Source of the DNA: an uncultured Methanosarcinales archaeon
GTDB taxonomy: Archaea > Nanobdellota > Nanobdellia > Woesearchaeales > JACPBV01
DNA length: 64,000 nt
Direction of reading: 5' to 3'
Assembly (NCBI GenBank): GCA_964577685.1
Contig: CAZNZT010000001.1
Span: 47,978-111,977 of the forward strand
Shown: one piece after another, positions 18,038 to 54,830 of the stretch
How the letters are laid out: each line of letters begins with the position of its first letter
How positions within the stretch are numbered: the first letter of the stretch is position 1
The notes under the pieces: model-generated
Database searches by the model: none
Told to the model about the DNA's origin: nothing
What the model saw: only the letters and a program-made list of their open reading frames with translations
Position numbers and translations under genes: made by a program

Positions 18038-19822
18038 CTACCATAAGAATATTTTTTTTATCCAACTAAGTATTTTACTAAAAAGATTCTTCTCTTCTTT
18101 TTTAGTTTTTGATGGTTTATCTGTTTCATTTGTTTTTTTGGTTTTATTTGTTGTCTTATTAGTAGATAATTGATTAACTTCCTCAATCATCTCTTCGAGG
18201 GGTTTTTTCCCCAATACATTTATCTTCTCTGTCTTCTTGAGAATAATAAGTTGGCCATTTAATCTAACATTAACATTCGTTGTAAATTCTAATTCTGCTT
18301 CACCATAATCTTTTGGTATTGTTACGGAGTAAGAATATGCTTCTTTTTCTTCCAATGGTTCAAGTCTTTCTATAAAAGCAGTTATATTCCCCTTCAAAGT
18401 GGCACGTATCGTTTTTGGAAAAATATCAACAACATCAATCCCTTCTAGCACCGTATTTTTTCTATTTTTTAAACTTACCTTGACTTCAATTTTTTCTCCT
18501 TCATAGACATTTTTCTTGGTGGTTTCCCTTATTATCTCTATTACTTTGTTCACAGCTTCGACTTTTATTCTCTGTGATTTTTTAAATGTATAGAGCTTCC
18601 CCGAAGATGAAGTATAAGAACCAGTAATAATTATATTAAAGAACTTATCTTCTTCAGTATAAGGTGCTGTTAGGGTCTTTTTGTAGATGTCTATTGTTTG
18701 ACCTGCTGCAATATTCTTTGTTTCTGTTATGTTGTTGAAAAGATCGCTAATAACGCTAATCTTAACATTGTTTATTTTTTTCTCAGCCCAATTTTTGATG
18801 CCTATATATAAATCATAAGCTGAATTCGATTTTACAATTGGGGTTACATTAAGTATCGGAACTACACTTGAAAGACCAACTGTAAATTGTTTCTCTAGGT
18901 TCTCTTCATACTTTCTTCTTGAGATTTCTAATACAGCAGATGTCTTTATTTTGAACCTACCAACGCGGCTTGGTTTGAGCTTTATAGTGAAATTTTTAGT
19001 TTCTTGCTCTTCCAGTTCACCTTCAAATATCAGTCTATTATCTTCTCTCTTAAAGCCAACTGGTATATTAAGGATAGATATAGACTCTGGTATCGATATC
19101 TCCAGATTTTCTATTTCCAATTTGTTTGAGCTATGCCTATTCCCTATTTTTAGAGTATAGTTTATTATGTCACCCCTGTCTGCTGCTTCTGTAGATATAG
19201 TGTCATTAAGGTAAAATGGTTTTTGTACACTTATTGTTACAATATCTGATTCAGTGGTTATATCATCTCCATTATATTTATAAGAAACCTCTGCTTGGGA
19301 ATCAAACGAAATAAGTTCTTTTGCTCTTATAGTGTAGGTAAAGGATTTCTCCTGTCCTGCACTAAGACTTCCCTCCCAGCTTCCTGCACCGCCATAAACC
19401 AATAAGCCCTCTGGATAAACATCAAGATACTTTATATTGTAGGCTTTTGCTTCTCCATTGTTTTTTATCGTAACACTTACTGTAATTAAATCATCTATAC
19501 TAGGTTTTACTGTAGAAAAAGACCTTGTAATTTCTATCTCTGGTTCTAATTCTGTAACCTTAATTTTTATCTCATTCCCATCTATATCTTCAAAGCAGTA
19601 TTTTATCTTTTCTTTTTTTTCACACTCCCCAATCTCCATTAGTCTTCCCAAACCATTAACCTTAAGAAGTAGTTTACCACTAGATTCAAAGTATTCAGCA
19701 TAGAAATAATCATCCCCTACCTTGAATGTCTCTCTATTAGTAACCCAATCATCAAATATAACTGCAGCTGACGAAAATGGGATAAGTAAAAGCAGAATAG
19801 GAAATATTGCCAAAAATCTCAT
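18038..19822 (-). CDS. Secreted repeat-containing cell-surface protein (DUF11/CARDB-like beta-sandwich repeats)
   Basis: 594 aa. Signal 'MRFLAIFPILLLLIPFSSAA'. Repeated 'V..V.NNGEA' units. C-terminal K/T-rich tail 'KTTNKTKKTNETDKPSKTKKEEK' followed by the amphipathic 'LFSKILSWIKKIFLW'. Confidence 0.55.
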   Translation of the reverse strand: MRFLAIFPILLLLIPFSSAAVIFDDWVTNRETFKVGDDYFYAEYFESSGKLLLKVNGLGRLMEIGECEKKEKIKYCFEDIDGNEIKIKVTELEPEIEITRSFSTVKPSIDDLITVSVTIKNNGEAKAYNIKYLDVYPEGLLVYGGAGSWEGSLSAGQEKSFTYTIRAKELISFDSQAEVSYKYNGDDITTESDIVTISVQKPFYLNDTISTEAADRGDIINYTLKIGNRHSSNKLEIENLEISIPESISILNIPVGFKREDNRLIFEGELEEQETKNFTIKLKPSRVGRFKIKTSAVLEISRRKYEENLEKQFTVGLSSVVPILNVTPIVKSNSAYDLYIGIKNWAEKKINNVKISVISDLFNNITETKNIAAGQTIDIYKKTLTAPYTEEDKFFNIIITGSYTSSSGKLYTFKKSQRIKVEAVNKVIEIIRETTKKNVYEGEKIEVKVSLKNRKNTVLEGIDVVDIFPKTIRATLKGNITAFIERLEPLEEKEAYSYSVTIPKDYGEAELEFTTNVNVRLNGQLIILKKTEKINVLGKKPLEEMIEEVNQLSTNKTTNKTKKTNETDKPSKTKKEEKNLFSKILSWIKKIFLW

Positions 19823-26327: not shown

Positions 26328-28142
26328 TCACTGTGCTTTTAAAGTTATGTCTTCCCCATTATTATAGGCCATCACCAATGTTCTGCCTATAGGACTATTT
26401 TTTTTTATTTTTATTGTGCCAGTAGAACCTGCCTTGACTCTCACAAGAAATTCGTTATTTACATATATGCCTATGTCCTTATTTTGGTTCTCTATGTTTG
26501 TTGTAAATATTATTGAACTTTTTTTTATTCTAATATCAAAAGGAATAACTCTTGTCTCTTCTTTTTCTGTTCTGCTTCTTTCTAATGGTTGAATATCAAT
26601 CCCTATGTTAAGCTTTCTTTCAATTGTTTCAATTTTTCTACCATTTCTCCCTATTATCTTGGGTATATCCTTGTTGGGAATATAAACAATTGCCTTTGTA
26701 TCTGAGATTAGCTCTACTTTTACATTACTACAATACCTCATAAACTCCCTTTCAATAGAACTTGCTGCTAATTTATGCACCCCTGTTTTAGGTGTTTGCT
26801 GTACTGGAACAACAACAGTTTGCTCACCATAGGTATATATCTCATATTCAAGCTTATTTGTTTCAAAATCATTAACTACTACTACAGGTCTAGCTAAATC
26901 GGCTTCTGTCATTCCTGTTGGGACCTTCACAACAATCTTCAATGACAACACTTTTTCTATTTGACCATTCTTTATAAAGACAACAGTATCAATAACCTGA
27001 GGTATTACACCCATTTCTATCCTGCCGATGAATCTTTGTATTGCATCTATCGGATTTGTGGCATGAACCACTCCAACCATTCCAACCCCAGCAAGCCTCA
27101 TGTCTGCAAACAATTTAAAATCTTCTGTATTACGCATTTCATCAAAGATTGTATAATCCGGTCTTGATAACAGCAATATATCATGAATCTCCTGAGCATC
27201 TCCGTGAGAGATTGCATATTGAGTTATGGTGTCTGGCAGAATTAGGTCTCTTGGAGCCTCAACTGTTTTTATTGTTTTGTTTTTTGAAGCGTAATATTCT
27301 GCAAGTGCTTGTGCAAAGGTAGATTTTCCCATGCCGGGGGAACCAGCTACCAATATGCCCTCTGCTTGTTCTGCTATTCTTTTTTTGAGTTTTTCGCTTA
27401 GCTTGTAGTCATCAAGTATTAACCTCTTTATTGGCCTAACAGCTGTAATCTCCCAACCGTCTGAGAATGGTGGCTTTGTTATTACAATCCTATACTTTCC
27501 TAACTGCACAATAGTGGACCCTTCCCTTTCTATCTCTATAAACCCATCTTTCCTTAGTTTTGCATCTTCTATAATCTCCCTAGAAATCTCTTGGACTTCT
27601 TCTTGTTTTAATGGTTCATCTCTGAGTTTAGTAAATTCCCATGAGCCAGGAAATCCTCTTTTTGCGTATGGAACAACATTTTCTTTTAGATGGACAGACA
27701 TTGTTGTGTCATCAAAATATTCTTCTAACTTTAGTTTTCTGATTGCTGACTCTGGTTTGAAGTATATACATTTAATACCTCTTGCCAGTGCTACTTCTGC
27801 CTGAACTTTATCAGAAGTCATTAGTGTTGCATCTTCCTCATATGCGAGCTGTCTTATCAATGAATCTATCTCTCCTAAAGAGGCATTTCTTATTTCAATT
27901 GCTTTTGGTCTTTGGCCAGAAAATATCAATTCAATATTTTTTAGCTCTCTTAATCTTTTTATCTCATCCAAACCAAGAAATCCAATTGCTTTTCCTAAGT
28001 TCGCTTGATGCTCAAGCTCAGATAAGATTGCTTCATGGATTATTACTTGATTCGTCTTTAACTTTTTGGATTTTATTTTAGATGAAACAAGACCTTCTAT
28101 TATAACACTTGTGTCTGGAACAAGTTTTTCTATGAATTGCAT
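26328..28142 (-). CDS. PIN-domain / PilT-like ATPase / KH-domain protein (archaeal COG1855-type)
   Basis: 604 aa. N-terminal PIN ('VPDTSVIIEG'). P-loop 'VAGSPGMGKSTFAQALAEYYAS'. C-terminal KH 'KIIGRNGRKIETIERKLNIGIDI'. Confidence 0.7.
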   Translation of the reverse strand: MQFIEKLVPDTSVIIEGLVSSKIKSKKLKTNQVIIHEAILSELEHQANLGKAIGFLGLDEIKRLRELKNIELIFSGQRPKAIEIRNASLGEIDSLIRQLAYEEDATLMTSDKVQAEVALARGIKCIYFKPESAIRKLKLEEYFDDTTMSVHLKENVVPYAKRGFPGSWEFTKLRDEPLKQEEVQEISREIIEDAKLRKDGFIEIEREGSTIVQLGKYRIVITKPPFSDGWEITAVRPIKRLILDDYKLSEKLKKRIAEQAEGILVAGSPGMGKSTFAQALAEYYASKNKTIKTVEAPRDLILPDTITQYAISHGDAQEIHDILLLSRPDYTIFDEMRNTEDFKLFADMRLAGVGMVGVVHATNPIDAIQRFIGRIEMGVIPQVIDTVVFIKNGQIEKVLSLKIVVKVPTGMTEADLARPVVVVNDFETNKLEYEIYTYGEQTVVVPVQQTPKTGVHKLAASSIEREFMRYCSNVKVELISDTKAIVYIPNKDIPKIIGRNGRKIETIERKLNIGIDIQPLERSRTEKEETRVIPFDIRIKKSSIIFTTNIENQNKDIGIYVNNEFLVRVKAGSTGTIKIKKNSPIGRTLVMAYNNGEDITLKAQ

Positions 28143-35561: not shown

Positions 35562-35969
35562 TTAAATAAAAATATTGTTCTTTTTGATATCTAAAATCTC
35601 TATTTTGTCTCCTACTCTGGTCTTTGTTTGCCCTATTTTTCCTGCTGGCAATTCTATAATGTACTTTGCCTTATTCCTTGGCCTGTAGAATGTAAAGGGC
35701 CTAAGGTTTTCTTTTAGTTCTGTGACTTCTTTATGTTCATTTAAAAATAAAACATCTATTTGATAAAAAACAAAAAACATATGTAACAGAGTTATCTTTT
35801 CTTTTTTGAATGGGAATACTAAAGCTACATCCTTAATCTTCTTTGAGAACATTAATCCTATGGATTTCTTAAAGATATTTTTGCATATCTTCAATTTTTT
35901 CACTAGTATTTTTTTTCTTGTTTTATTTATTAGCATTTTTAAAGGATTATTACTAGAGAGAAGTTTCAA
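35562..35969 (-). CDS. DUF192 family protein
   Basis: 135 aa, 'KKSIGLMFSKK...PLHMFFV...DVLFLNE' matches the DUF192 (COG1430) pattern. Confidence 0.5.
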   Translation of the reverse strand: MKLLSSNNPLKMLINKTRKKILVKKLKICKNIFKKSIGLMFSKKIKDVALVFPFKKEKITLLHMFFVFYQIDVLFLNEHKEVTELKENLRPFTFYRPRNKAKYIIELPAGKIGQTKTRVGDKIEILDIKKNNIFI

Positions 35970-36063
35970 TAAATAGGAATATTTAAATATTTCCTATAGT
36001 TTTAATTCTTCAAGGGTTTTTTAGTCTAGTTGTTATATTTACTAAAAAAGGGGGGTAATATAA

Positions 36064-39000
36064 ATGGAAGGGTGTAATTTGAAGTCAAGGATTATTTCTA
36101 TTCTTATTTCTATGTTTTTATTGATTTTTGTTTCAAATGTTTTGGCTCAATCGAATATTTTTGATTTCTATGGGTATGTGAAAGACGCTAATGGAAACTA
36201 TGTAAGTGGAGCAAATGTTACATTAAGAGAAGAGCTTATGGGCCCTGGAGGGACGCCATTAATATTTTCCACTTTATCAGATGCTAATGGCTTTTTTAAT
36301 ATTTCAAGTGTAAATGGCAGTACACTATATTTGCTTTCAATAGTTAAGTATTCTAATGGAGTTGCACAGCTTGTTAATAAACCACTTCCCCCCCTTCCAT
36401 CAGATATGTATGAGTTTCAATTGATTAATCAAACATTTTATTTAAAAGATGCTGCTACAATAAACATAACAATGTATAACGAAAGTGGGGATGATGTAAG
36501 CTTTAATGGATTTGTCCTAGACACAAAATATAATTATCCAATAGCGAAATTTGAGGATGAGAATAATCCAGTAATTAGAAAAGAGGTTGTTATCCCTGCT
36601 GGGAGGTTTAACTATTCTGTTGTTGTCTGGAAATCTGGTTATGCTCCTCCAAGGTCATTCAATGCTATTGCATACAATACAAGTAGAGGAGATATAGTAA
36701 ATGTAAGAGAAAATATAACCACAAATATGTTTTATCTGACTGGTTATTTAAAATGGCCTAATGGAAGCAATGTCACAAATGTTAATTTTACAGATGTTGC
36801 TTCTTATTTTCCAATTAGTAATTTTTTACCCCTAGATGGAGAAATAAAGGGATTCCAAAAGTATGTTGGAAGCAAAGGTGGTTATGCATGGTATAATATT
36901 TCTGTACCAGGGCCAAACCTTGATATCTTCGTTATGGCATTCGCTAATGATTCAGAATATTATATGGGTACTGCAAGAGTAACCATAACTGGTAATAAAG
37001 AAGAAAATATAACAATATATCCGTTAGCAGGTAGTTATGATATAGCAACTAGTACAAGTGTAGTGAATGTAAATACTAGTAAGACTACAATTAATGTTTT
37101 CTATGATAATGGAACACAAAATGTAAGTGCTGGGGAGACCTTCTTTGATATTCTAGTGAATTATAATGGAACACAGATTAAATTCACAGCAAAAACAAAT
37201 CTTAGTGGTTCAGCTAAGATTCCATTAAGGAATGATACAGGTGCAACAATAGAGATATTCAATGATAGGTTTCCACCAAGAAAGTTTACTTATAGTGGAG
37301 CTGAGCTTGAATCAGATATTAATATTATACTGAAGGGATTTGATAGAATGGAGGATGTAGAAGGAAACATAATTCAAGATATAAAGTCAGAATTTTTTGT
37401 TTCAAACTCAAGTTGTGATGTTCCGAATCCACCTTCTGATTGTTTGGTATTTGAAATAAGTAATGCTTCAAATCCAAGAGAGGGAGTAAAACTCTTATTG
37501 TTGCCTGGGGATGTATCAGTAAGATTAACCCAACTTTCAACAAATATTGTTGTACATTATAAGAATACAGACCTAATAGCTTCTGGCCCACCAGACTTTG
37601 AACCAAGCACTAGGGCTAATAATACTGGTTCTGGAGCATCTTTGAGAGATATTTGGAGATTTGGAAGTTTAGGCCCTGAAATTTATGAAAGCCTTCTTGT
37701 TGGTGTCCCGTATAATAGTTCAAGGATTGATGAAACTTATGCACCATTACCAAGTATATTAATAGGTAATTTATATGATGTACAAAACAATTGGGTACCA
37801 ATATGGAATTCAACAGACGACCCAAATGCCTCAAATGTCCCATCCGCTTACAGTGATTTTGATAGCAGATGGTTTAATGCTAGCTATGGTGGAATGCCAT
37901 GTACTAATGACTTGGATGTTTTCAATTCACTAAGTCAGGGTTGTTATGTAGACAAAACAAATGACATGATATGGTTAAAGATACCCCATTTCTCTGGACT
38001 TGGAATAACTGTGCAGGCATATGCTAACTTAGGTAACATTACATCAGATAGGGCTTCTTATTCTTGCTATCCAAGCTGCTCTGCTTATATTAACTTGACT
38101 ATGAACAACTCAGACCTTGCAGGGGTGCAGAATATCTCTGTTAACAATACAGCAACAGTTACTGGGATAACTTACAAGATAGAATATAAGAACCTCTCAA
38201 ACGGAGAGTGGGTCTACTTAGGGACAGCAAACGACAATAATAGCTGGATATACGATTATGATTTAGTTTTATATAATAGCTCAAATGTAGATAATACAAC
38301 ACATCAGTTTAGAATCAATATAACACTTCCTAGTGCACTATCAACAAAATGGAATTTTAGTTTAGTAATTAATGGTAGCATATATACCCTTGATCCATGG
38401 TTAGATAGTATAAACCTAACAAGTCCAGCAGATGGTGCTTCTGTTGCTTCAGGTAGTAACAATTTTGTATTTACATTGTTTTCTGACAGCTATCCAACAC
38501 AAAATTGTACACTTTATGTTGATGGCAGTGCTGTTGCATCAAATGCTTCAACGGTTAATGGTTCAGCAACTACACTCACAGCCAGTGTAACAAGTTCTGG
38601 TAGTTGGTATGTGAGTTGCAATGAAACAGGAAACTCCGAAGTAAGAACATTTATAGTTGATACAACTGGGCCAAGCATAACCTCTCTAAATTATCCAGGG
38701 AATAATCTAAAAGTAGGTAGTAGTTCTATAAACTTCAACTGGACAGCTACTGATGATATAGATACAAGCTTTGAGTGTAATTTAACTCTAGATGGGTTAG
38801 TCAATGCAAGCAGCATAACTGTAAGTAATGGGACCCCAGCAAACTATACAGTAAATAATATTAATGACGGGACACATAACTGGAGTGTAATTTGCGAGGA
38901 TGGTGTGGGTAACACAGGAAGTTCGCAAACTTATACCTTCTATATAGACACAACAGCACCTACTGTAACTATGAACCAGCCAACGGATGGTATGAATACA

Positions 39001-41214
39001 AGTAGCAGGATTATTAATGTAACCATAGTAGACTCAATCGCAGGAATAGATAATGAGTCTATAATGGTTGATACATATATCTGGAATGGTTCGGCGTTTA
39101 TTAATCAAACGAGATACTTATTCCCTAATAATGTAAGTTGCACAAGCACAGCAATGAATAGTACAAGCACGACATGTACATTTAATGCCTCCAAATTACC
39201 TGATACTGCAAATAGTAGCATAAATATTAGCGTGTTTGTAAATGACTCTCTTGACAATCAAAAGGTATCATCAATAGTCTTTAACCTAGATACTGTAGTG
39301 CCAGTTATGAATTCTATTAGTTTATCTGATAGCTATATAAGTTCTGGACAAGCAATTACAGTTACTGTTAATAGTACAGATACCCCTGGTACAGGTATTA
39401 GTAGTGTAACTCTAACATACTCTGTTGATAGTGTCAATGATACTACTCTCACAAAGGGAACAGGGGATTTATGGTTGGATTCAATCCTCGTTACAGAATC
39501 AAGTGATGGAAGCTACAATATTAGTGCAACAAGTGTAGATTATGCAGGAAATAGCAATGCAATCTCTGCTATAATCAGGATAGACAATACAGCACCTACA
39601 ATATCTGGAGCCTACGCCGATAATAGCTTATTGAGTAATTCTCCGACAATTACTGATGCTGATGGAAATGTAACAATAAACTGGACAATTACAGATGTAA
39701 ACCTTTCGTCTACTAATTTGTCAATAGACTCAGGTGTTATAACCAACTCTTCAACTTCAGCTGTAAATTCGTTTACTACAAGCTTGTCTGCGGGAGAACA
39801 TAATGCCACTATAAGTGCTATTGATGAGGCAGGAAATAGTGTTACAACAACATATACATTCTATATGAATTCACAGGAGAATACCAGTGAAATACTAAGT
39901 AAAATACAAAACGCAATAGGCTCGGATACAGCATTAAGTTTATCTCTAAAAGAAAGTGATGGGACTGACTTATCAAGTAATTTAACATACCTAAATAAAA
40001 CATTAGTACTAGAGATACTCTTAAATGGAACAAATGGACAGAAGGCATGGGGTACAATAAGAGAATTCAGTGGTCTATATGCTAAATGGAATAACAGCGA
40101 TAAAATAAGAATAGAAAAGGATAGTTCATCAAGTATAGGAACAAGGATAACACAAAGAGCAGGAACAACTTTAGACAAGTTTATATTGTTTAGGAATGCA
40201 TCTTATTTCCTTGGTAGTAGCAGATTTTCCCAAGGTGCATCAATTATATTTAATCAGAGTTTACCATCTGGCTATGATGTATTGTATATAGAAGATGATG
40301 ATGGTGAAACAATCTATAAACTAAGTAGATGTACTACAGTCCCTACAACAATAACAACCGATAATATGTGCTATGTGAACACATCAAATAATGTAACACT
40401 GTATATACCTCATTTCTCTGGTGGGGGACTAGCGAATGACACAACAGCACCAATTATTAATATAACAGACCCAGTGAACAATACTATAAAGAACAACAGT
40501 TACTTTACACTTACATTTGATGTTTGGGAGGCAAATCCAAAAACAAACAATCAATTTTGTAGGTATAATCTTACAAACAGTACAAACAAGGAGATAGAAG
40601 TAGGTTATCTTACAACACCTACACCAACTGGAACAAAGTATACATTCACTAAGGCTATAAGTGGTCTAAAAAACGATACATACAATATAACTATAATTTG
40701 TGCTGACTTAAATAACCAAAGTAGAACAGTAGTTCATAATTTCACGGTCGCAGATTCAATAGCTCCAAGGATAACTTCCATAAGTACATCATCAAGTGGA
40801 ACAACAGAGGTAACAGTAACCTTATCTGTTACAACAGATGAAGCAGCAACATGTAGGTATAGCTCGGCTGATGTAGCATATTCTTCAATGAGTTTAATGT
40901 CAAGCACTGGAGGGACTTCCCATTCTTATAGTAATAAATTTTATTTAGATAGTTCAGGCAGGTATTATGTGAGATGCATGGATGAAATGGGAAATGCCAT
41001 GACAAGTTCAAACTCTACCTCATATAGCATATACATAACAGAAGAAACTACAACCAGTTCAGGCGGAGGTGGGGGAGGAATTGGATATAGGCTAGTAAAG
41101 AAAAAAACAACCGCCTTTGAGTTAATTGACATTATAAGAGAGTTCTATGAAGGGACTTCAAAACTTAGTGCTTTTGATATAATTGATAAGATAAGAGAAT
41201 TTTATGGAGGTTAA
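36064..41214 (+). CDS. Giant secreted surface (S-layer/adhesin-like) glycoprotein candidate with no TM anchor
   Basis: 1716 aa. Signal 'MEGCNLKSRIISILISMFLLIFVSNVLAQ'. Dozens of N-x-S/T sequons. Repeated Ig-like segments ('DTTAPTVTM', 'DNTAPTISG', 'DTTGPSITS', 'DSIAPRITS'). Ends with a Gly6 run followed by the tandem 'AFELIDIIREFYEG'/'AFDIIDKIREFYGG' repeat. Confidence 0.7.
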   Translation: MEGCNLKSRIISILISMFLLIFVSNVLAQSNIFDFYGYVKDANGNYVSGANVTLREELMGPGGTPLIFSTLSDANGFFNISSVNGSTLYLLSIVKYSNGVAQLVNKPLPPLPSDMYEFQLINQTFYLKDAATINITMYNESGDDVSFNGFVLDTKYNYPIAKFEDENNPVIRKEVVIPAGRFNYSVVVWKSGYAPPRSFNAIAYNTSRGDIVNVRENITTNMFYLTGYLKWPNGSNVTNVNFTDVASYFPISNFLPLDGEIKGFQKYVGSKGGYAWYNISVPGPNLDIFVMAFANDSEYYMGTARVTITGNKEENITIYPLAGSYDIATSTSVVNVNTSKTTINVFYDNGTQNVSAGETFFDILVNYNGTQIKFTAKTNLSGSAKIPLRNDTGATIEIFNDRFPPRKFTYSGAELESDINIILKGFDRMEDVEGNIIQDIKSEFFVSNSSCDVPNPPSDCLVFEISNASNPREGVKLLLLPGDVSVRLTQLSTNIVVHYKNTDLIASGPPDFEPSTRANNTGSGASLRDIWRFGSLGPEIYESLLVGVPYNSSRIDETYAPLPSILIGNLYDVQNNWVPIWNSTDDPNASNVPSAYSDFDSRWFNASYGGMPCTNDLDVFNSLSQGCYVDKTNDMIWLKIPHFSGLGITVQAYANLGNITSDRASYSCYPSCSAYINLTMNNSDLAGVQNISVNNTATVTGITYKIEYKNLSNGEWVYLGTANDNNSWIYDYDLVLYNSSNVDNTTHQFRINITLPSALSTKWNFSLVINGSIYTLDPWLDSINLTSPADGASVASGSNNFVFTLFSDSYPTQNCTLYVDGSAVASNASTVNGSATTLTASVTSSGSWYVSCNETGNSEVRTFIVDTTGPSITSLNYPGNNLKVGSSSINFNWTATDDIDTSFECNLTLDGLVNASSITVSNGTPANYTVNNINDGTHNWSVICEDGVGNTGSSQTYTFYIDTTAPTVTMNQPTDGMNTSSRIINVTIVDSIAGIDNESIMVDTYIWNGSAFINQTRYLFPNNVSCTSTAMNSTSTTCTFNASKLPDTANSSINISVFVNDSLDNQKVSSIVFNLDTVVPVMNSISLSDSYISSGQAITVTVNSTDTPGTGISSVTLTYSVDSVNDTTLTKGTGDLWLDSILVTESSDGSYNISATSVDYAGNSNAISAIIRIDNTAPTISGAYADNSLLSNSPTITDADGNVTINWTITDVNLSSTNLSIDSGVITNSSTSAVNSFTTSLSAGEHNATISAIDEAGNSVTTTYTFYMNSQENTSEILSKIQNAIGSDTALSLSLKESDGTDLSSNLTYLNKTLVLEILLNGTNGQKAWGTIREFSGLYAKWNNSDKIRIEKDSSSSIGTRITQRAGTTLDKFILFRNASYFLGSSRFSQGASIIFNQSLPSGYDVLYIEDDDGETIYKLSRCTTVPTTITTDNMCYVNTSNNVTLYIPHFSGGGLANDTTAPIINITDPVNNTIKNNSYFTLTFDVWEANPKTNNQFCRYNLTNSTNKEIEVGYLTTPTPTGTKYTFTKAISGLKNDTYNITIICADLNNQSRTVVHNFTVADSIAPRITSISTSSSGTTEVTVTLSVTTDEAATCRYSSADVAYSSMSLMSSTGGTSHSYSNKFYLDSSGRYYVRCMDEMGNAMTSSNSTSYSIYITEETTTSSGGGGGGIGYRLVKKKTTAFELIDIIREFYEGTSKLSAFDIIDKIREFYGG

Positions 41215-41869
41215 AATGAAAAAAAGCATAACTTATTTGGTGATGATATTACTAGCTATAAGCCTTGTTTCTGCAGTTTCAGTAACAAGAGTGTTACCAA
41301 AAAGAGCTAACCCAAATAGTGAATTGACAGTAAAACTAAAAATAACAAACGCTGATAGCACAGGCCTATTAACATTAGAAGAAGAATTGCCCAAGGGGAT
41401 TTCTATTAAGGATTGGAAAGTAATCGGTGCAAAGGAGCCAAAGGACAAAATTAATACGAGAGAGAAAGATAATAGGTTTGGTTGGTCATTCACGCCAAGT
41501 GGTTCATCTGCCACTGTTGAGTATAAGATAAAGTTAGGTAAGAGCGATGTAGATTTTGGTACGCTTATTTATTTTGATAAATCTGGATACGGAAAGGTTG
41601 ACCCTGAAAGCTTAAAGGTTGCTCCAATAACTTGTGGTGATGGTATTTGTGAAGGTAATGAAAACCCTGAAACCTGTGCAGCAGATTGTCCGAAGAAAGC
41701 CGAAACGCCAAAACCAGAAGAAACTCCTAAAGCAGAAGAAACGCCAAAAACACAAGTGAAAGAGGAGGAAGAAGAAGTTACAAAGATACCAACCATAGGA
41801 ATAGCAATCGCAGCTGTAGTGTTGGTGATAATAGTTATTTTGGTATATTTAGCAAAAAAGAAAAAATAA
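41204..41869 (+). CDS. Small secreted protein with Thr/Pro/Glu-rich stalk and C-terminal TM anchor; candidate membrane stalk for the giant protein
   Basis: 221 aa. The start overlaps the giant gene by 11 nt. Signal peptide. 'CGDGICEGNENPETCAADCP' Cys motif. 'ETPKPEETPKAEETPKTQ' repeats. C-terminal 'IGIAIAAVVLVIIVILVYLAKKKK'. Confidence 0.6.
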   Translation: MEVKMKKSITYLVMILLAISLVSAVSVTRVLPKRANPNSELTVKLKITNADSTGLLTLEEELPKGISIKDWKVIGAKEPKDKINTREKDNRFGWSFTPSGSSATVEYKIKLGKSDVDFGTLIYFDKSGYGKVDPESLKVAPITCGDGICEGNENPETCAADCPKKAETPKPEETPKAEETPKTQVKEEEEEVTKIPTIGIAIAAVVLVIIVILVYLAKKKK

Positions 41870-41898
41870 AGTTTTTTTATTTTAAAACTTTATTTATT

Positions 41899-48475: not shown

Positions 48476-50326
48476 ATGATAGTCAAGCCAAAGGGAAGAT
48501 ACCTTATAGAGATATCTCAAGAGGTAATGAATCCTATCGGTGGAGTGTACACTGTCATAAGGTCTAAAGTTAAAGAGATGGTTAGATACTATGGTAAAAA
48601 CTACTTTTTGATAGGTCCTTGTTCCTCATTGTATCCAGTAGAATTTAAGGAAGAAAAGCCACCTAGAGATATCAAGGCTGTTTTTGATGGGTTATCAAGA
48701 CTAGGGATTATATGTTATTATGGGAGATGGATTGTTGAAGGTAGACCACAGGTGTTTCTGGTTGATTCTTCCAAACGAATAAATGAGTTAAATGAAATAA
48801 AAGACAATTTAACAAAAAAATATAATATTGACTTTAGATTATCAAATAATGAGAAAACAAACAAAGAAATAGACGAGCTTATTGTTTGGGGAGATTCAAC
48901 AACAATCTTAATTGAAAAATTAATACAATTGAATAGATTCAAAAATAAGATAGGTGTAATCCACCTTCATAATTCAGGTATTCCCGTTCTACCTTTAATT
49001 GCCAAGTTAAGAGACAAAAATGCGAAAGTTGGTTTAGTACTAACCTTACATGCTACCAGCCTTGGGAGAAAGATACTCATGAATAAAGAAAACCTTTACT
49101 CTGAGATAAAAAAAGGACTCAAAAATAAATGTGAGGTAAGTAAAAATAGAGTATCTCTTTACGGACAACCAAGCATATTTCTTCATCAATTAGAAAAACT
49201 AGGTGCTAAAAGAGCTGATGTTGTAACTGCCGTTAGTGGATTAACATCAAAAGAAGCAAGATATATTCTTGGTAGGGAGGCTGATGTTGTAACGCCGAAT
49301 GGTGTTGACCTTAGTTTTTTTCCTACTCTTGAAGATAGAGCCATAATCCACAGTATTTCAAAAGAAAAAATACATAAATTCCTAAATGCTTATTTTTTAC
49401 CATATTATCCAGTTGATGTCAAGGATTCATTATTGTTTTTTAGTTCTGGAAGATATGAATTGATAACAAAGGGATATGAGATTTTTCTTGAGGCGTTAGG
49501 AAAACTCAATAATATTCTAAAGAAAAAAAATAGTAAGAAGAATATATTCGTTTTTTTGTTTATTATGAAAAAAAACAAAGAACCAAAAGAAGAAGTGATA
49601 AGAAATCTTTCTTTATATTGGACTATTGAACAAGAGGTTAATAAGGAGATGCTATATATAAAGAACAAAGTAATGGGGGCGTTAATCCATGGTTATGATT
49701 TAAAATATAAGCATATATTTGATGATGCATTCTTGATAAATACAAAAAAGATTATCCAAAAACTATTCAATAAAAAAAATAAATTACCACCTGTCTGCGC
49801 CCATAGGGGATTGGATAAAGGGGATTCTTTATTGGAGTTGTTGAAAAAAAACAAACTTGAAAACAAAAAGAGTGATAAGGTCAAAGTTATATTTTATCCT
49901 GCTCCGGTTTCTGTATCTGATGGTCTATTGTCAATGGACTATTTTTCCGTTATTTCTGGTATGCAACTTGGGGTATTTCCTTCGCTATATGAACCATGGG
50001 GATATACAGCACTAGAAACTGCCCTGCACGGTGTTATGGGTATTACAACAGACGCAGCAGGATTTGGAAGGTTTATTCAGAAGATAAACAAAGGAAAAAA
50101 AGAAGGAGTGTTTGTATTAAAAGTGCTAAATAGAAAAGAAAAAGATATTACTAATGAATTAGTTAAAATGATGTACAAGATAACAAAGCTTTCTAGAGAG
50201 GAAAGGATAAAAAATAAGATAAAGGCATATGAGCTTGCTACTCTTACAGATTGGAAGAGATTTGCTAAATATTATATAAGGGCGCATAATTTGGCAATTG
50301 AAAGATGCAAAAAAAGATTACATTAA
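48476..50326 (+). CDS. GT3-type glycogen(starch)-synthase-like glycosyltransferase, paralog A
   Basis: 616 aa. 'YLIEISQEVMNPIGGVYTVIRSKVKEM' matches the GT3 'EVANKVGGIYTV' N-terminal signature. 'FPSLYEPWGYTALE' matches the GT-B catalytic E. Confidence 0.6.
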   Translation: MIVKPKGRYLIEISQEVMNPIGGVYTVIRSKVKEMVRYYGKNYFLIGPCSSLYPVEFKEEKPPRDIKAVFDGLSRLGIICYYGRWIVEGRPQVFLVDSSKRINELNEIKDNLTKKYNIDFRLSNNEKTNKEIDELIVWGDSTTILIEKLIQLNRFKNKIGVIHLHNSGIPVLPLIAKLRDKNAKVGLVLTLHATSLGRKILMNKENLYSEIKKGLKNKCEVSKNRVSLYGQPSIFLHQLEKLGAKRADVVTAVSGLTSKEARYILGREADVVTPNGVDLSFFPTLEDRAIIHSISKEKIHKFLNAYFLPYYPVDVKDSLLFFSSGRYELITKGYEIFLEALGKLNNILKKKNSKKNIFVFLFIMKKNKEPKEEVIRNLSLYWTIEQEVNKEMLYIKNKVMGALIHGYDLKYKHIFDDAFLINTKKIIQKLFNKKNKLPPVCAHRGLDKGDSLLELLKKNKLENKKSDKVKVIFYPAPVSVSDGLLSMDYFSVISGMQLGVFPSLYEPWGYTALETALHGVMGITTDAAGFGRFIQKINKGKKEGVFVLKVLNRKEKDITNELVKMMYKITKLSREERIKNKIKAYELATLTDWKRFAKYYIRAHNLAIERCKKRLH

Positions 50327-52189: not shown

Positions 52190-53902
52190 ATGAAAAAAAT
52201 AAAAGCAAAGGCAGATTTCCTGATTGAAGTATCCTATGAGATAGTTAAACAACTCGGTGGAATTCATACTGTTATTAAAACAAAAGCACCTTTTATAAAG
52301 AAATATTATGGAGAAAATTACCTAGTCATTGGGGTTTATACTAAAGAAGGGATTAAAAAAAGATTTAAAGCGAGAAAACCAAGTAAGGAGATAAGAAAAC
52401 TTTTTTTGGAATTAAAAAATGAGAAGATACTAGCGCGCTATGGTACTTGGCTTGTAAAGTCTAATCCAAAGGCGATTCTTATTGATACTAGAAAATTAAG
52501 AAAAGACAAAAAAATAAAGAGTATTATAAAAAAGGAATATGGCATTGGACTTTCTAGTAAGGACTATTATCAAAGAGATTCCTTTCTTTTCGGATATGCT
52601 GCCGGGAGATTGATATATGAATTAAGAAAACTAAATTTTCTTAAGAACAAAAAGATAGTCGTTAATGCTCACGAATATATGAGTGGTCTATGTTTATTAT
52701 ATTTAAGAAAACATAAAGCAAATTTGCCATTGGTTTTTACAACCCATGCTACTGTTCTTGGAAGAACTATTAGTTATAAGGGTGAAAATATACAAAAGAC
52801 GATACTAAGACTAAGCAAAAAAGGAAAACATGAGCATGAAAAAAAAGTTAAGGAATATATAAAAAAGATAAACAAAATAACATATACGAAGCATTTAGTT
52901 GAGAAAGCTTGTTCAAAAAAAGCTGATGTTTTTACTACGGTTAGCGAAACAACATCAAAGGAAGCGGCTTTTTTGTTAGGAAAAAAAGCAGACATCATAA
53001 CACCGAATGGATTAGAAATTATAAAACATCCTAGTATAGATGAACAGCTGGCAATAAACTACAAATCAAAACAAAAAATTTATAGATTCCTTGAAGCATA
53101 TTTTTATCCGTATTATTGGATAAACACAAAAGACTCCTTATTATTTTATACCTCTGGGAGAAACGAGATATATACGAAAGGATATGACCTATTTTTTGAG
53201 GCTTTGAACAAACTAAACTCAAGACTAAAAAGAGAGAAGTATGAAGGAAACATATTTGTATTCTTATTTATAATGATCAGAAAAAAAAGAATAAAGAAAA
53301 TCATTAAGAAAACATTATATGCTTACAGAAAGAACAAAAAGCTATTAAAAAAGATAAAACTTACTAAAAATCCTCCAAACTGTGCATTTGATACTAGAGG
53401 TGATAATACTGTTTTGATGTATCTTAAAAAAAATAAACTTGAAAACAAAAAGAGTGATAAGGTCAAAGTTATATTTTATCCGGCACCTGTGGAGGAGAAT
53501 GATGGATTACTTTCAATGAGTTACAAAGAGATAATCTCTGGAATGGACTTAGGCATTTTCCCGTCTCTATATGAACCATGGGGGTACACCCCGCTTGAAT
53601 CTGCTGCTATGAGTACAATCACCATAACAACAGACATAGCAGGATTTGGAAGGTTCATAAAGGAAAAAAGTGATCAAAGAAAAAGACAGGGAATAATTGT
53701 TTTAAGGACCAAGAGAAAAACTAGATTGGAGATTATTGAAAATTTGGCTAAGACAATGCAGGAAATTGTTAATATGCCAAAAGAAAAAAGGCTAAAAATG
53801 AGGATTGATGCCAATAAACTATCAGGCTTCGCAAATTGGGAGGAGTTCTCTAAGAATTATATAAAAGCCCATAACCTTGCTCTTGAGAAACATAAGAAAT
53901 AA
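52190..53902 (+). CDS. GT3-type glycogen-synthase-like glycosyltransferase, paralog B
   Basis: 570 aa, 'FLIEVSYEIVKQLGGIHTVIKTKAP', 'FPSLYEPWGYTPLE'. Shares an identical 23-aa / 47-nt patch with paralog A. Confidence 0.6.
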   Translation: MKKIKAKADFLIEVSYEIVKQLGGIHTVIKTKAPFIKKYYGENYLVIGVYTKEGIKKRFKARKPSKEIRKLFLELKNEKILARYGTWLVKSNPKAILIDTRKLRKDKKIKSIIKKEYGIGLSSKDYYQRDSFLFGYAAGRLIYELRKLNFLKNKKIVVNAHEYMSGLCLLYLRKHKANLPLVFTTHATVLGRTISYKGENIQKTILRLSKKGKHEHEKKVKEYIKKINKITYTKHLVEKACSKKADVFTTVSETTSKEAAFLLGKKADIITPNGLEIIKHPSIDEQLAINYKSKQKIYRFLEAYFYPYYWINTKDSLLFYTSGRNEIYTKGYDLFFEALNKLNSRLKREKYEGNIFVFLFIMIRKKRIKKIIKKTLYAYRKNKKLLKKIKLTKNPPNCAFDTRGDNTVLMYLKKNKLENKKSDKVKVIFYPAPVEENDGLLSMSYKEIISGMDLGIFPSLYEPWGYTPLESAAMSTITITTDIAGFGRFIKEKSDQRKRQGIIVLRTKRKTRLEIIENLAKTMQEIVNMPKEKRLKMRIDANKLSGFANWEEFSKNYIKAHNLALEKHKK

Positions 53903-54693: not shown

Positions 54694-54830
54694 TGGGCCT
54701 AGGAGGATTCGAACCCCCGACCTTAAGCCAATCTAGGTTCTCACCTAAGATTTTCAGCTGACCTCCTATTTAATAGAAGGCTGCCGCTCTTTTTGGCAAA
54801 CCCATTGTGTCCAAACTGAGCTATAGGCCC
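54694..54830 (-). tRNA. Intron-containing tRNA gene (137-nt precursor). Probable tRNA-Arg with anticodon UCU. Three non-exonic inserts are inferred.
   Basis: The minus-strand read is GGGCCTA-TA-GCTC-AGTTTGG[20 nt]A-GAGC-G-GCAGC-CTTCTA[14 nt]A-GCTGA-[35 nt including about 30 extra]-GGGGG-TTCGAAT-CCTCC-TAGGCCC-A. The acceptor stem is a perfect 7 bp and the T-arm is canonical. Exons sum to 73 nt. Confidence 0.6.

Follow-up and report, generated by a model that had tools for sequence, protein, structure and literature searches.

A tandem helical tail and a cohesin-like membrane protein as a candidate two-protein surface anchor in Woesearchaeota-type archaea

In the two-component S-layer of the Sulfolobales (PMC10903991, 10.64898/2026.08.21.746120), and likewise in a SlaA/SlaB-like pair from Nitrosopumilus, a large, N-glycosylated, immunoglobulin (Ig)-rich protein without a transmembrane (TM) helix is encoded beside a smaller protein with a Sec signal, one or more β-sandwich domains and a C-terminal TM helix, which tethers the large protein away from the membrane. 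Here we describe a gene pair of related design in a 64,000-nucleotide stretch of archaeal DNA from contig CAZNZT010000001.1 (the window, by which we mean this stretch at its full length), where positions 36064 to 41869 encode a 1716-residue secreted glycoprotein, the carrier, followed by a 217-residue membrane protein, the anchor. In the window, as in 32 related pairs, an anchorless glycoprotein and a TM stalk protein are thus specified by adjacent, co-oriented genes. A comparison with solved S-layer chains, including SlaA and SlaB, revealed no sequence similarity, in agreement with an earlier sequence-only reading of the window that had drawn the SlaA/SlaB analogy on architecture and had noted the same absence. 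The two designs also differ in their parts: SlaB has three Ig-like domains and a long trimeric coiled coil, whereas the window anchor has one β-sandwich, a cysteine mini-module and a disordered stalk, and the contact proposed here is made by a discrete, portable C-terminal helix-loop-helix tag on the carrier. We claim no lattice for the pair. A preprint on cultivated DPANN archaea goes no further than speculation that an anchorless S-layer-like protein needs a partner resembling SlaB (10.1101/2023.10.27.564410), and our literature searches, which combined cohesin, dockerin or S-layer with DPANN or Woesearchaeota and also covered PGF-pre-PGF, returned no description of this pair.

The second relevant precedent is the cohesin-dockerin system, in which cargo proteins of many kinds bear a small helical module, duplicated and C-terminal, and a β-sandwich receptor holds this module and so tethers the cargo to the surface. 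We propose that the window pair works in a similar way, as a plug-and-socket anchor in which the tail at the end of the carrier docks non-covalently into a cohesin-like sandwich in the anchor, a reading that we consider moderately probable; direct binding of tail to sandwich, a 1:1 stoichiometry and any assembly into an S-layer lattice are what we infer here from the comparisons that follow. Docking of the large protein to the small one through its C-terminal repeat had been suggested in the sequence-only reading, and this interpretation is supported by all of the comparative tests that we ran.

The carrier gene (36064..41214, + strand) encodes a protein that begins with a predicted Sec signal peptide (36064..36147, +; residues 1-28), with a basic n-region and a hydropathy peak at residues 4-33, whose cleavage would fall between SNVLA and QS. 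Hydropathy analysis placed the signal-like hydrophobic segment at residues ~8-30 and found no other TM-like segment in the protein, with nothing hydrophobic after residue 33 and therefore no C-terminal TM helix. N-x-S/T sequons number 91, against 38.5±5.1 in composition-preserving shuffles, which is 2.4 times the expectation and about 10 standard deviations above it. An Ig-like repeat region (38401..41043, +; residues ~780-1660) is marked by DxTxP domain linkers and paired cysteines (815/852, 905/944, 1499/1546 and 1597/1638), with four inter-domain D[TN]T[AG]P motifs at residues 866, 962, 1174 and 1459, and Pfam returned a Big_13 Ig-like match at residues 906-963 that is sub-threshold (24 bits; cut-off 27) as well as a weak CarboxypepD_reg match. 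Linkers, paired cysteines and the Big_13 match are features typical of tandem Ig-like domains; since BLAST detected no internal repeats at E<=1e-2, these domains appear to be too divergent for that method. With a Sec signal, sequon enrichment and tandem Ig-like domains, the carrier has the general make-up of an archaeal surface (S-layer-type) glycoprotein.

The carrier ends in a flexible Gly6 linker (41062..41079, +; residues 1667-1672), followed by IGYRLVKKK and by two 14-mers, AFELIDIIREFYEG and AFDIIDKIREFYGG, which are identical at 10 of 14 residues and 32 of 42 nucleotides. Written out in full, the C-terminus reads SSGGGGGGIGYRLVKKK-TTAFELIDIIREFYEG-TSK-LSAFDIIDKIREFYGG, where TTAFELIDIIREFYEG (41107..41154, +) is predicted to form the first helix and LSAFDIIDKIREFYGG (41164..41211, +), at the extreme C-terminus, the second; the first of these repeats is kept in the 32 pairs, and the consensus is a tandem TAF(D/E)IIDxIRxFYxG. 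AlphaFold2 (AF2) modelled the tail as a helix-loop-helix of two 13-residue helices joined by a 6-residue loop, with a predicted local distance difference test score (pLDDT) of ~95. The sequence-only reading had described this giant open reading frame with its signal peptide, its many sequons, its repeated Ig-like linker blocks and an ending in Gly6 and a tandem 14-mer in place of a TM segment, and sequence and hydropathy bear out each of these features at the same coordinates.

The anchor has the complementary anatomy of a type-I membrane protein. Its signal peptide MKKSITYLVMILLAISLVSA (41216..41275, +; assigned by hydropathy, AF2 helix at residues 2-16) precedes an ectodomain (41276..41623, +; residues ~21-136) that is modelled as a cohesin-like β-sandwich and is the proposed socket for the tail. 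Next come a four-Cys mini-module, CGDGICEGNENPETCAADC (41633..41689, +; residues 140-158), a low-complexity Pro/Glu/Thr/Lys stalk with three (A/E)ETPK repeats and an acidic run (41690..41785, +), and a C-terminal TM helix with a cytoplasmic KKKK (41786..41866, +; hydropathy, AF2 helix at residues 193-215), both of them kept in all homologs. The signal peptide, a Cys motif CGDGICEGNENPETCAADCP, the three (A/E)ETPK repeats, the TM helix and KKKK had all been picked out in the sequence-only reading and are all present; that reading would have lost its footing had the small protein been intracellular, and hydropathy and AF2 instead predict an extracellular β-sandwich.

Tail and anchor were found together wherever we looked for either of them with its neighbourhood at hand, and this was one of the checks that the sequence-only reading had suggested for its pair. 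A tail profile run against the GTDB species representatives recovered 15 loci in 15 assemblies, one each, all 15 with an anchor homolog downstream; the anchor starts within a few nucleotides of the carrier stop in 14 of them, and in the remaining locus (L019) the spacer measures 59 nucleotides. In the opposite direction, an anchor profile run against metagenome contigs gave 21 full-length anchors, each at its own locus, and a tail-bearing open reading frame ends at or just before the anchor start in 19 of the 19 loci with upstream DNA. Three loci fetched by way of the anchor protein (L001, L003 and L005) have a large secreted protein directly upstream, and the tandem tail is carried by the upstream gene, as in the window. 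In total we count 32 distinct tail/anchor pairs, which belong to Woesearchaeota/Nanoarchaeota metagenome-assembled genomes (MAGs), with the anchor directly next to the carrier in nearly all. That tail protein and anchor have a functional link of some kind is, in our judgement, close to certain. The contrary explanation, that these are unlinked neighbouring surface-protein genes kept together by vertical inheritance, draws on the fact that one archaeal clade holds all loci, so that phylogenetic inertia contributes; we nevertheless rate it as very improbable, because the flanks vary (Memo and AdoHcyase in the window and L003, HTTM in L001, other surface proteins in L005) while the pair is contiguous throughout, because the spacers are mostly 0-12 nucleotides with an embedded Shine-Dalgarno (SD) sequence, and because the carrier body has been replaced or split while tail and anchor persist.

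The MAGs that hold close relatives of the two proteins bear the label Nanoarchaeota or Candidatus Woesearchaeota, which places the host among the DPANN archaea. The module, otherwise specific to Woesearchaeota/Nanoarchaeota, also occurs, with its typical synteny, in four MAGs labelled 'uncultured Methanosarcinales archaeon' (L008, L014, L015 and L020; CAZKBD01, CAZBPE01, CAZJZJ01 and CAZDCW01), which are likely to be mislabelled bins or contaminant contigs.

The junction between the two genes suggests that they are expressed as a unit. The anchor gene (41216..41869, +) probably starts at ATG 41216, giving 217 residues, and not at the mechanically assigned start 41204, since all 40 aligned homologs begin with MKK or MRK at the position of this codon, the public gene call for the identical protein P0001 is 217 residues long, and an SD sequence, GGAGGT (41206..41211, +), lies 4 nucleotides upstream within the carrier's last two Gly codons. 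The gap between the carrier's TAA stop and ATG 41216 is then 1 nucleotide; the 11-nucleotide overlap and the length of 221 residues given in the sequence-only reading were probably artefacts of taking the first ATG. Related loci mostly have spacers of 0-12 nucleotides (0, 1, 2, 3, 4, 5, 7, 8, 9, 12 and more), and in most of them the anchor's SD sequence lies inside the terminal Gly-Gly codons or as GGAGG in the short spacer, which points to translational coupling of carrier and anchor. The tail's terminal Gly-Gly codons (GGAGG, GGTGG or GGGGG) double as the anchor's SD sequence in the window and in about 20 related loci, and the conservation of the final GG in the protein may in part reflect selection on the RNA. 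A single split or recoded gene, read as one by frameshift or readthrough, was considered and rejected, as the frame and the length of the spacer differ between loci and every anchor comes with an SD sequence and a signal peptide of its own. The carrier gene has an SD-like GGGGGGT of its own (36050..36056, +; read from the sequence), 7 nucleotides 5' of its ATG, and a T-rich tract just 3' of the anchor stop (41873..41890, +; also read from the sequence) is likely to act as an archaeal terminator between convergent genes.

We then asked how the tail is distributed beyond these loci. A word-indexed search with a first tail profile recovered 6 short fragments and missed the long carriers, and an exhaustive HMMER search of 1.84 billion representative proteins was used instead; it returned 69 tail-bearing cluster representatives (E<=1e-3), about as many as there are anchor clusters (68), with the tail at most a few residues from the C-terminus in nearly all of them. 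Such recurrence argues that the tandem is far beyond chance. The carriers to which it is attached are diverse, with lengths from ~330 to 2465 residues that cluster at 330-480 and 1000-1770 residues among the 69 representatives. Most relatives align to the window carrier over the last ~35 residues only, a whole-database search with the window carrier found nine homologs, and short and long carriers have only the pre-PGF domain (see below) and the tail in common. On these alignments, tail and partner are conserved while the carrier body diverges fast.

The physical character of the tail bears on a different way of reading it. Both helices are amphipathic, with a hydrophobic moment of ~0.5 and a mean hydrophobicity of 0.1-0.3, values that are borderline 'surface-seeking', and the two could conceivably lie in the plane of the membrane interface and anchor the carrier directly, leaving the small protein with an unrelated surface function. 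This seems to us improbable. The tail is net acidic (-3), has conserved Asp residues and lacks a flanking collar of Lys or Arg; each helix has one Arg, which is replaced only in the divergent tails of L017, L041 and L045. A glycoprotein linked through Gly6 would have to reach the bilayer, a distance for which homologs use stalks of ~40-100 residues plus a TM helix, and it would go unexplained why tail and anchor are found together in every one of the 32 pairs.

The anchor family comprises 68 proteins (clusters), all ~205-230 residues long and starting with MKK or MRK, to which no Pfam domain could be assigned. In the AF2 model of the window anchor, built on a 40-sequence alignment, the β-sandwich at residues ~21-136 is predicted with a pLDDT of 92-98, the stalk at residues 161-190 with ~47-58, as expected of a disordered segment, and the only helices are the signal peptide and the TM segment, with no coiled coil. 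Foldseek searches of the PDB with this model gave as top match 2xdh, a non-cellulosomal cohesin from Archaeoglobus fulgidus (E 2.6e-6), and many cohesins from cohesin-dockerin complexes align to it over nearly the full length at 2.5-2.8 Å. The modelled fold can be called cohesin-like, although the fold match alone does not single out cohesins, and at the sequence level there is no cohesin signal and no match to the Pfam Cohesin family (PF00963), whose members are nine-stranded jelly-roll β-sandwiches. The anchors, whose sequences are related to one another, contain 4 sequons in 6997 residues, where 29.5±4.9 would be expected; the density in long carriers is 4-7 per 100 residues. The depletion in anchors is suggestive of, and consistent with, a binding module that is kept free of glycans.

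The four cysteines of the mini-module (C140, C145, C154 and C158) are invariant in the 40-sequence family alignment. Four divergent anchors lack the module and retain their pairing with a tail; for this reason, and because the module is widespread in unrelated proteins, we rejected the idea that it is an essential tail-binding element. As a separate observation, the motif CGDGxCEGxENxxxCxxDC is found in long tandem arrays, the largest with 11 copies, in a wide range of unrelated, secreted proteins (L048, L049, L056, L078, L080 and ~55 other metagenome loci). It corresponds to no Pfam family, a neighbouring MopE-type motif matching in one such protein only, and seems to be a disulfide spacer module that has so far escaped cataloguing.

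A third comparison is suggested by what precedes the tail. The PGF-pre-PGF domain normally stands before the PGF-CTERM archaeosortase signal, for example in the Haloferax S-layer glycoprotein. In most of the relatives scanned this domain (TIGR04213) lies directly before the tail instead, with 63-104 bits against a cut-off of 28, as in L001, L005, L007, L014, L020 and P0100, and the cargo is, as in the archaeosortase A system, a secreted, sequon-rich glycoprotein. The window carrier has no NCBIfam match to TIGR04213, which is missing from L003 and L008 as well; these three carriers have lost the domain, so that the tail hangs directly from the Gly-rich linker, and in the closest relative (P0100, 50% identity) the pre-PGF domain sits between Gly linker and tail. 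With the tail in the PGF-CTERM position, one might take it for a sorting or processing signal for some enzyme, by analogy with archaeosortase/PGF-CTERM or sortase, and the small protein for a covalent acceptor or an export or assembly chaperone. To our knowledge, however, all archaeosortase/exosortase and sortase signals have a TM helix and a basic end, and the tail has neither, nor does it have a PGF motif; no NCBIfam model matches it, though NCBIfam curates such C-terminal signals; and no candidate enzyme is conserved in the neighbourhood, where only a DUF192 gene recurs. We regard a sorting function as improbable, and the anchoring that we propose differs from that by PGF-CTERM in being non-covalent and mediated by a partner, as opposed to lipid attachment after cleavage.

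The strongest indication of what the small protein does comes from carrier homologs without a tail. Three proteins share the body of the window carrier (P0142, E 3e-77; P0143, E 1e-40; P0144, E 1e-40, 28% identity over 824 residues). They close with a stalk of acidic or Pro/Glu/Ala type, after which come a C-terminal TM helix and basic residues; ahead of the stalk, P0142 and P0144 have retained the pre-PGF domain, and a Cys-rich segment is found in P0144 in addition. Their stalk, TM helix and basic end are thus in cis, as in the Pyrobaculum PySLP, while in the window the corresponding elements belong to a second protein, with a tag/receptor pair in addition. Other homologs (P0100, P0077 and P0146) end in the pre-PGF domain and the tail. 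At the two tail-less loci examined (P0142, L106; P0144, L105), neither a tail nor an anchor gene was found. One protein family therefore has two endings, either its own stalk and TM helix or a tail together with a separate protein that supplies the Cys module, stalk, TM helix and basic end, and mutually exclusive endings of this sort are what one would expect were the small protein to act as the anchor.

The same data speak to the possibility that the tail is a module for self-association, its helical hairpins forming dimers, trimers or hexamers at the symmetry axes of a lattice, with the small protein a co-expressed envelope subunit or spacer that touches another part of the carrier or nothing at all. 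Bundle formation is common for amphipathic helix-loop-helix units and the AF2 hairpin is confident; nor do divergent tails and their anchors show clear compensatory changes. Across all 32 carriers, on the other hand, only the tail and the downstream anchor are conserved, and where the pre-PGF domain is missing (the window protein, L003 and L008) the tail is the sole candidate contact. That body homologs with a TM helix of their own lack the tail, with the partner absent at the two loci examined, further argues for anchoring and not for a lattice function. We consider self-association unlikely, though it is the alternative that we take most seriously.

Several observations nonetheless weigh against docking of the tail into the sandwich. 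Adjacency proves a functional link and not necessarily a physical contact. Dockerins are built from a segment of ~22 residues that occurs twice and carries a Ca-binding F-hand loop, DxNxDGxxxxxD (PF00404), whereas the window tail has a repeat period of 19 residues and a 6-residue loop and lacks such Ca-binding loops; Pfam gives no Dockerin match to it, and there is no dockerin among its fold matches. Where divergent tails have exchanged Arg for Asp or Glu (L041 and L045; L044 was also considered), charge-compensating changes in the anchors opposite follow no clear pattern, with too few lineages for one to emerge, and anchor Asp121 is also lost in lineages that retain the tail Arg. Finally, a survey assigns the S-layers of Nanoarchaeota to a different, MSTP-like type of protein (10.1101/2024.05.28.596244), for which reason we do not claim the large protein as an S-layer; it may be an adhesin.

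The arrangement also departs from cellulosomes in its economy, with one tail and one receptor per genome, side by side, as against many dockerins per scaffoldin, and in that the window receptor is a TM protein whereas anchoring scaffoldins are attached through surface-layer homology (SLH) domains or by sortase. The system is neither homologous to SlaA/SlaB nor a canonical cohesin-dockerin pair; the comparisons suggest a non-covalent, two-protein surface anchor.

On the docking reading, both proteins would be made from one mRNA with coupled translation and exported by Sec, the 1716-residue protein becoming heavily N-glycosylated and having no membrane anchor of its own. Its C-terminal helix-loop-helix tag would plug into the unglycosylated, cohesin-like β-sandwich of the 217-residue protein and so hold the carrier on the cell, while the smaller protein would be retained in the membrane by its C-terminal TM helix and KKKK, with the four-Cys disulfide mini-module and the ~30-residue Pro/Glu/Thr/Lys stalk setting the distance between β-sandwich and membrane. 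The pair would thereby achieve in trans what a stalk and TM helix achieve in cis for related surface proteins, and what PGF-CTERM does after a pre-PGF domain.

Some loci have a more elaborate arrangement. In L005 the tail is found on a 385-residue protein and not on the neighbouring 2295-residue giant. A three-gene variant of this kind, with the order giant, short carrier, anchor, was observed in L005 (1891-10639), L014, L020, L021, L037, L039, L043 and L044. The giants are secreted, ~920-2300 residues long where complete, and have neither tail nor TM helix, with C-terminal motifs that are conserved within sub-groups (...NNTNDKxYxxN... and ...NERIE(I/V)...); the short carriers, at 334-440 residues, consist of an N-domain, the pre-PGF domain and the tail. 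This arrangement suggests an adaptor role for the short carrier, between giant and anchor, and the window protein and other long carriers may be fusions of giant and adaptor. A fuller scenario would make tail and ectodomain a Ca-independent tag/receptor pair specific to Woesearchaeota-type DPANN, which was split from a cis stalk-TM ending or replaced PGF-CTERM and which in some lineages supports a three-tier assembly of giant, ~385-residue adaptor and anchor; we would put the chances of this scenario at about even.

Since the DPANN cell surface mediates attachment to host cells, the way in which its proteins are anchored is relevant to the symbiotic lifestyle of these archaea. The analysis provides a concrete, conserved pair of partners, whose modules are defined as a tag of 35 residues and a receptor of ~115, and indicates that, inside a single protein family, the membrane anchor can pass from cis to trans. 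If the tag/receptor reading is true, envelope anchoring in archaea would gain a new class, and the pair would be a protein-docking pair that is both new and orthogonal; if binding is true, it would add a compact and perhaps calcium-independent docking pair to the toolbox of cohesin-dockerin type. For annotators, tail and anchor offer two new family signatures for proteins that now have no Pfam or NCBIfam assignment.

The pair lies among housekeeping genes in a low-G+C (~33%) segment of an archaeal chromosome, with genes for Trm1, DUF763, Memo and AdoHcy hydrolase next to it and, further off in the window, for topoisomerase VI B, aIF5B, ribosomal protein P0 and SerRS. The DUF192 gene (35562..35969, - strand; Pfam 62.6 bits) is transcribed divergently from the carrier gene; at least 15 related loci have a homolog upstream of the carrier or of the giant before it, on the opposite strand in all but L037. 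DUF192 may be a third component or may share a regulatory region. A second secreted protein of the window (18038-19822, -; 594 residues) has a Pfam DUF11 domain and repeated CARDB-like segments. The sequence-only reading had singled it out as a repeat protein without a TM segment and with a Lys/Thr-rich end, as is indeed the case; the Lys/Thr-rich stretch leads into a short end, NLFSKILSWIKKIFLW, that is cationic and amphipathic, and the tail motif is absent. This end may be a different kind of anchor that acts directly at the membrane surface.

Elsewhere in the window, a 137-nucleotide tRNA (54694-54830, -; Rfam 40 bits) was missed by ARAGORN and is consistent with an intron-containing archaeal tRNA. 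Two paralogous glycosyltransferases of the glycogen-synthase family lie 2 kb apart (48476-50326, +, and 52190-53902, +; Pfam Glycogen_syn, E 2e-108 and 2e-100), and a 604-residue protein (26328-28142, -) has a PIN domain at its N-terminus together with an ATPase domain of type II/IV secretion (T2SSE). In a related Nanoarchaeota MAG (L001:16599-19217), the eRF1 gene is split by an intein with a LAGLIDADG endonuclease domain (Pfam).

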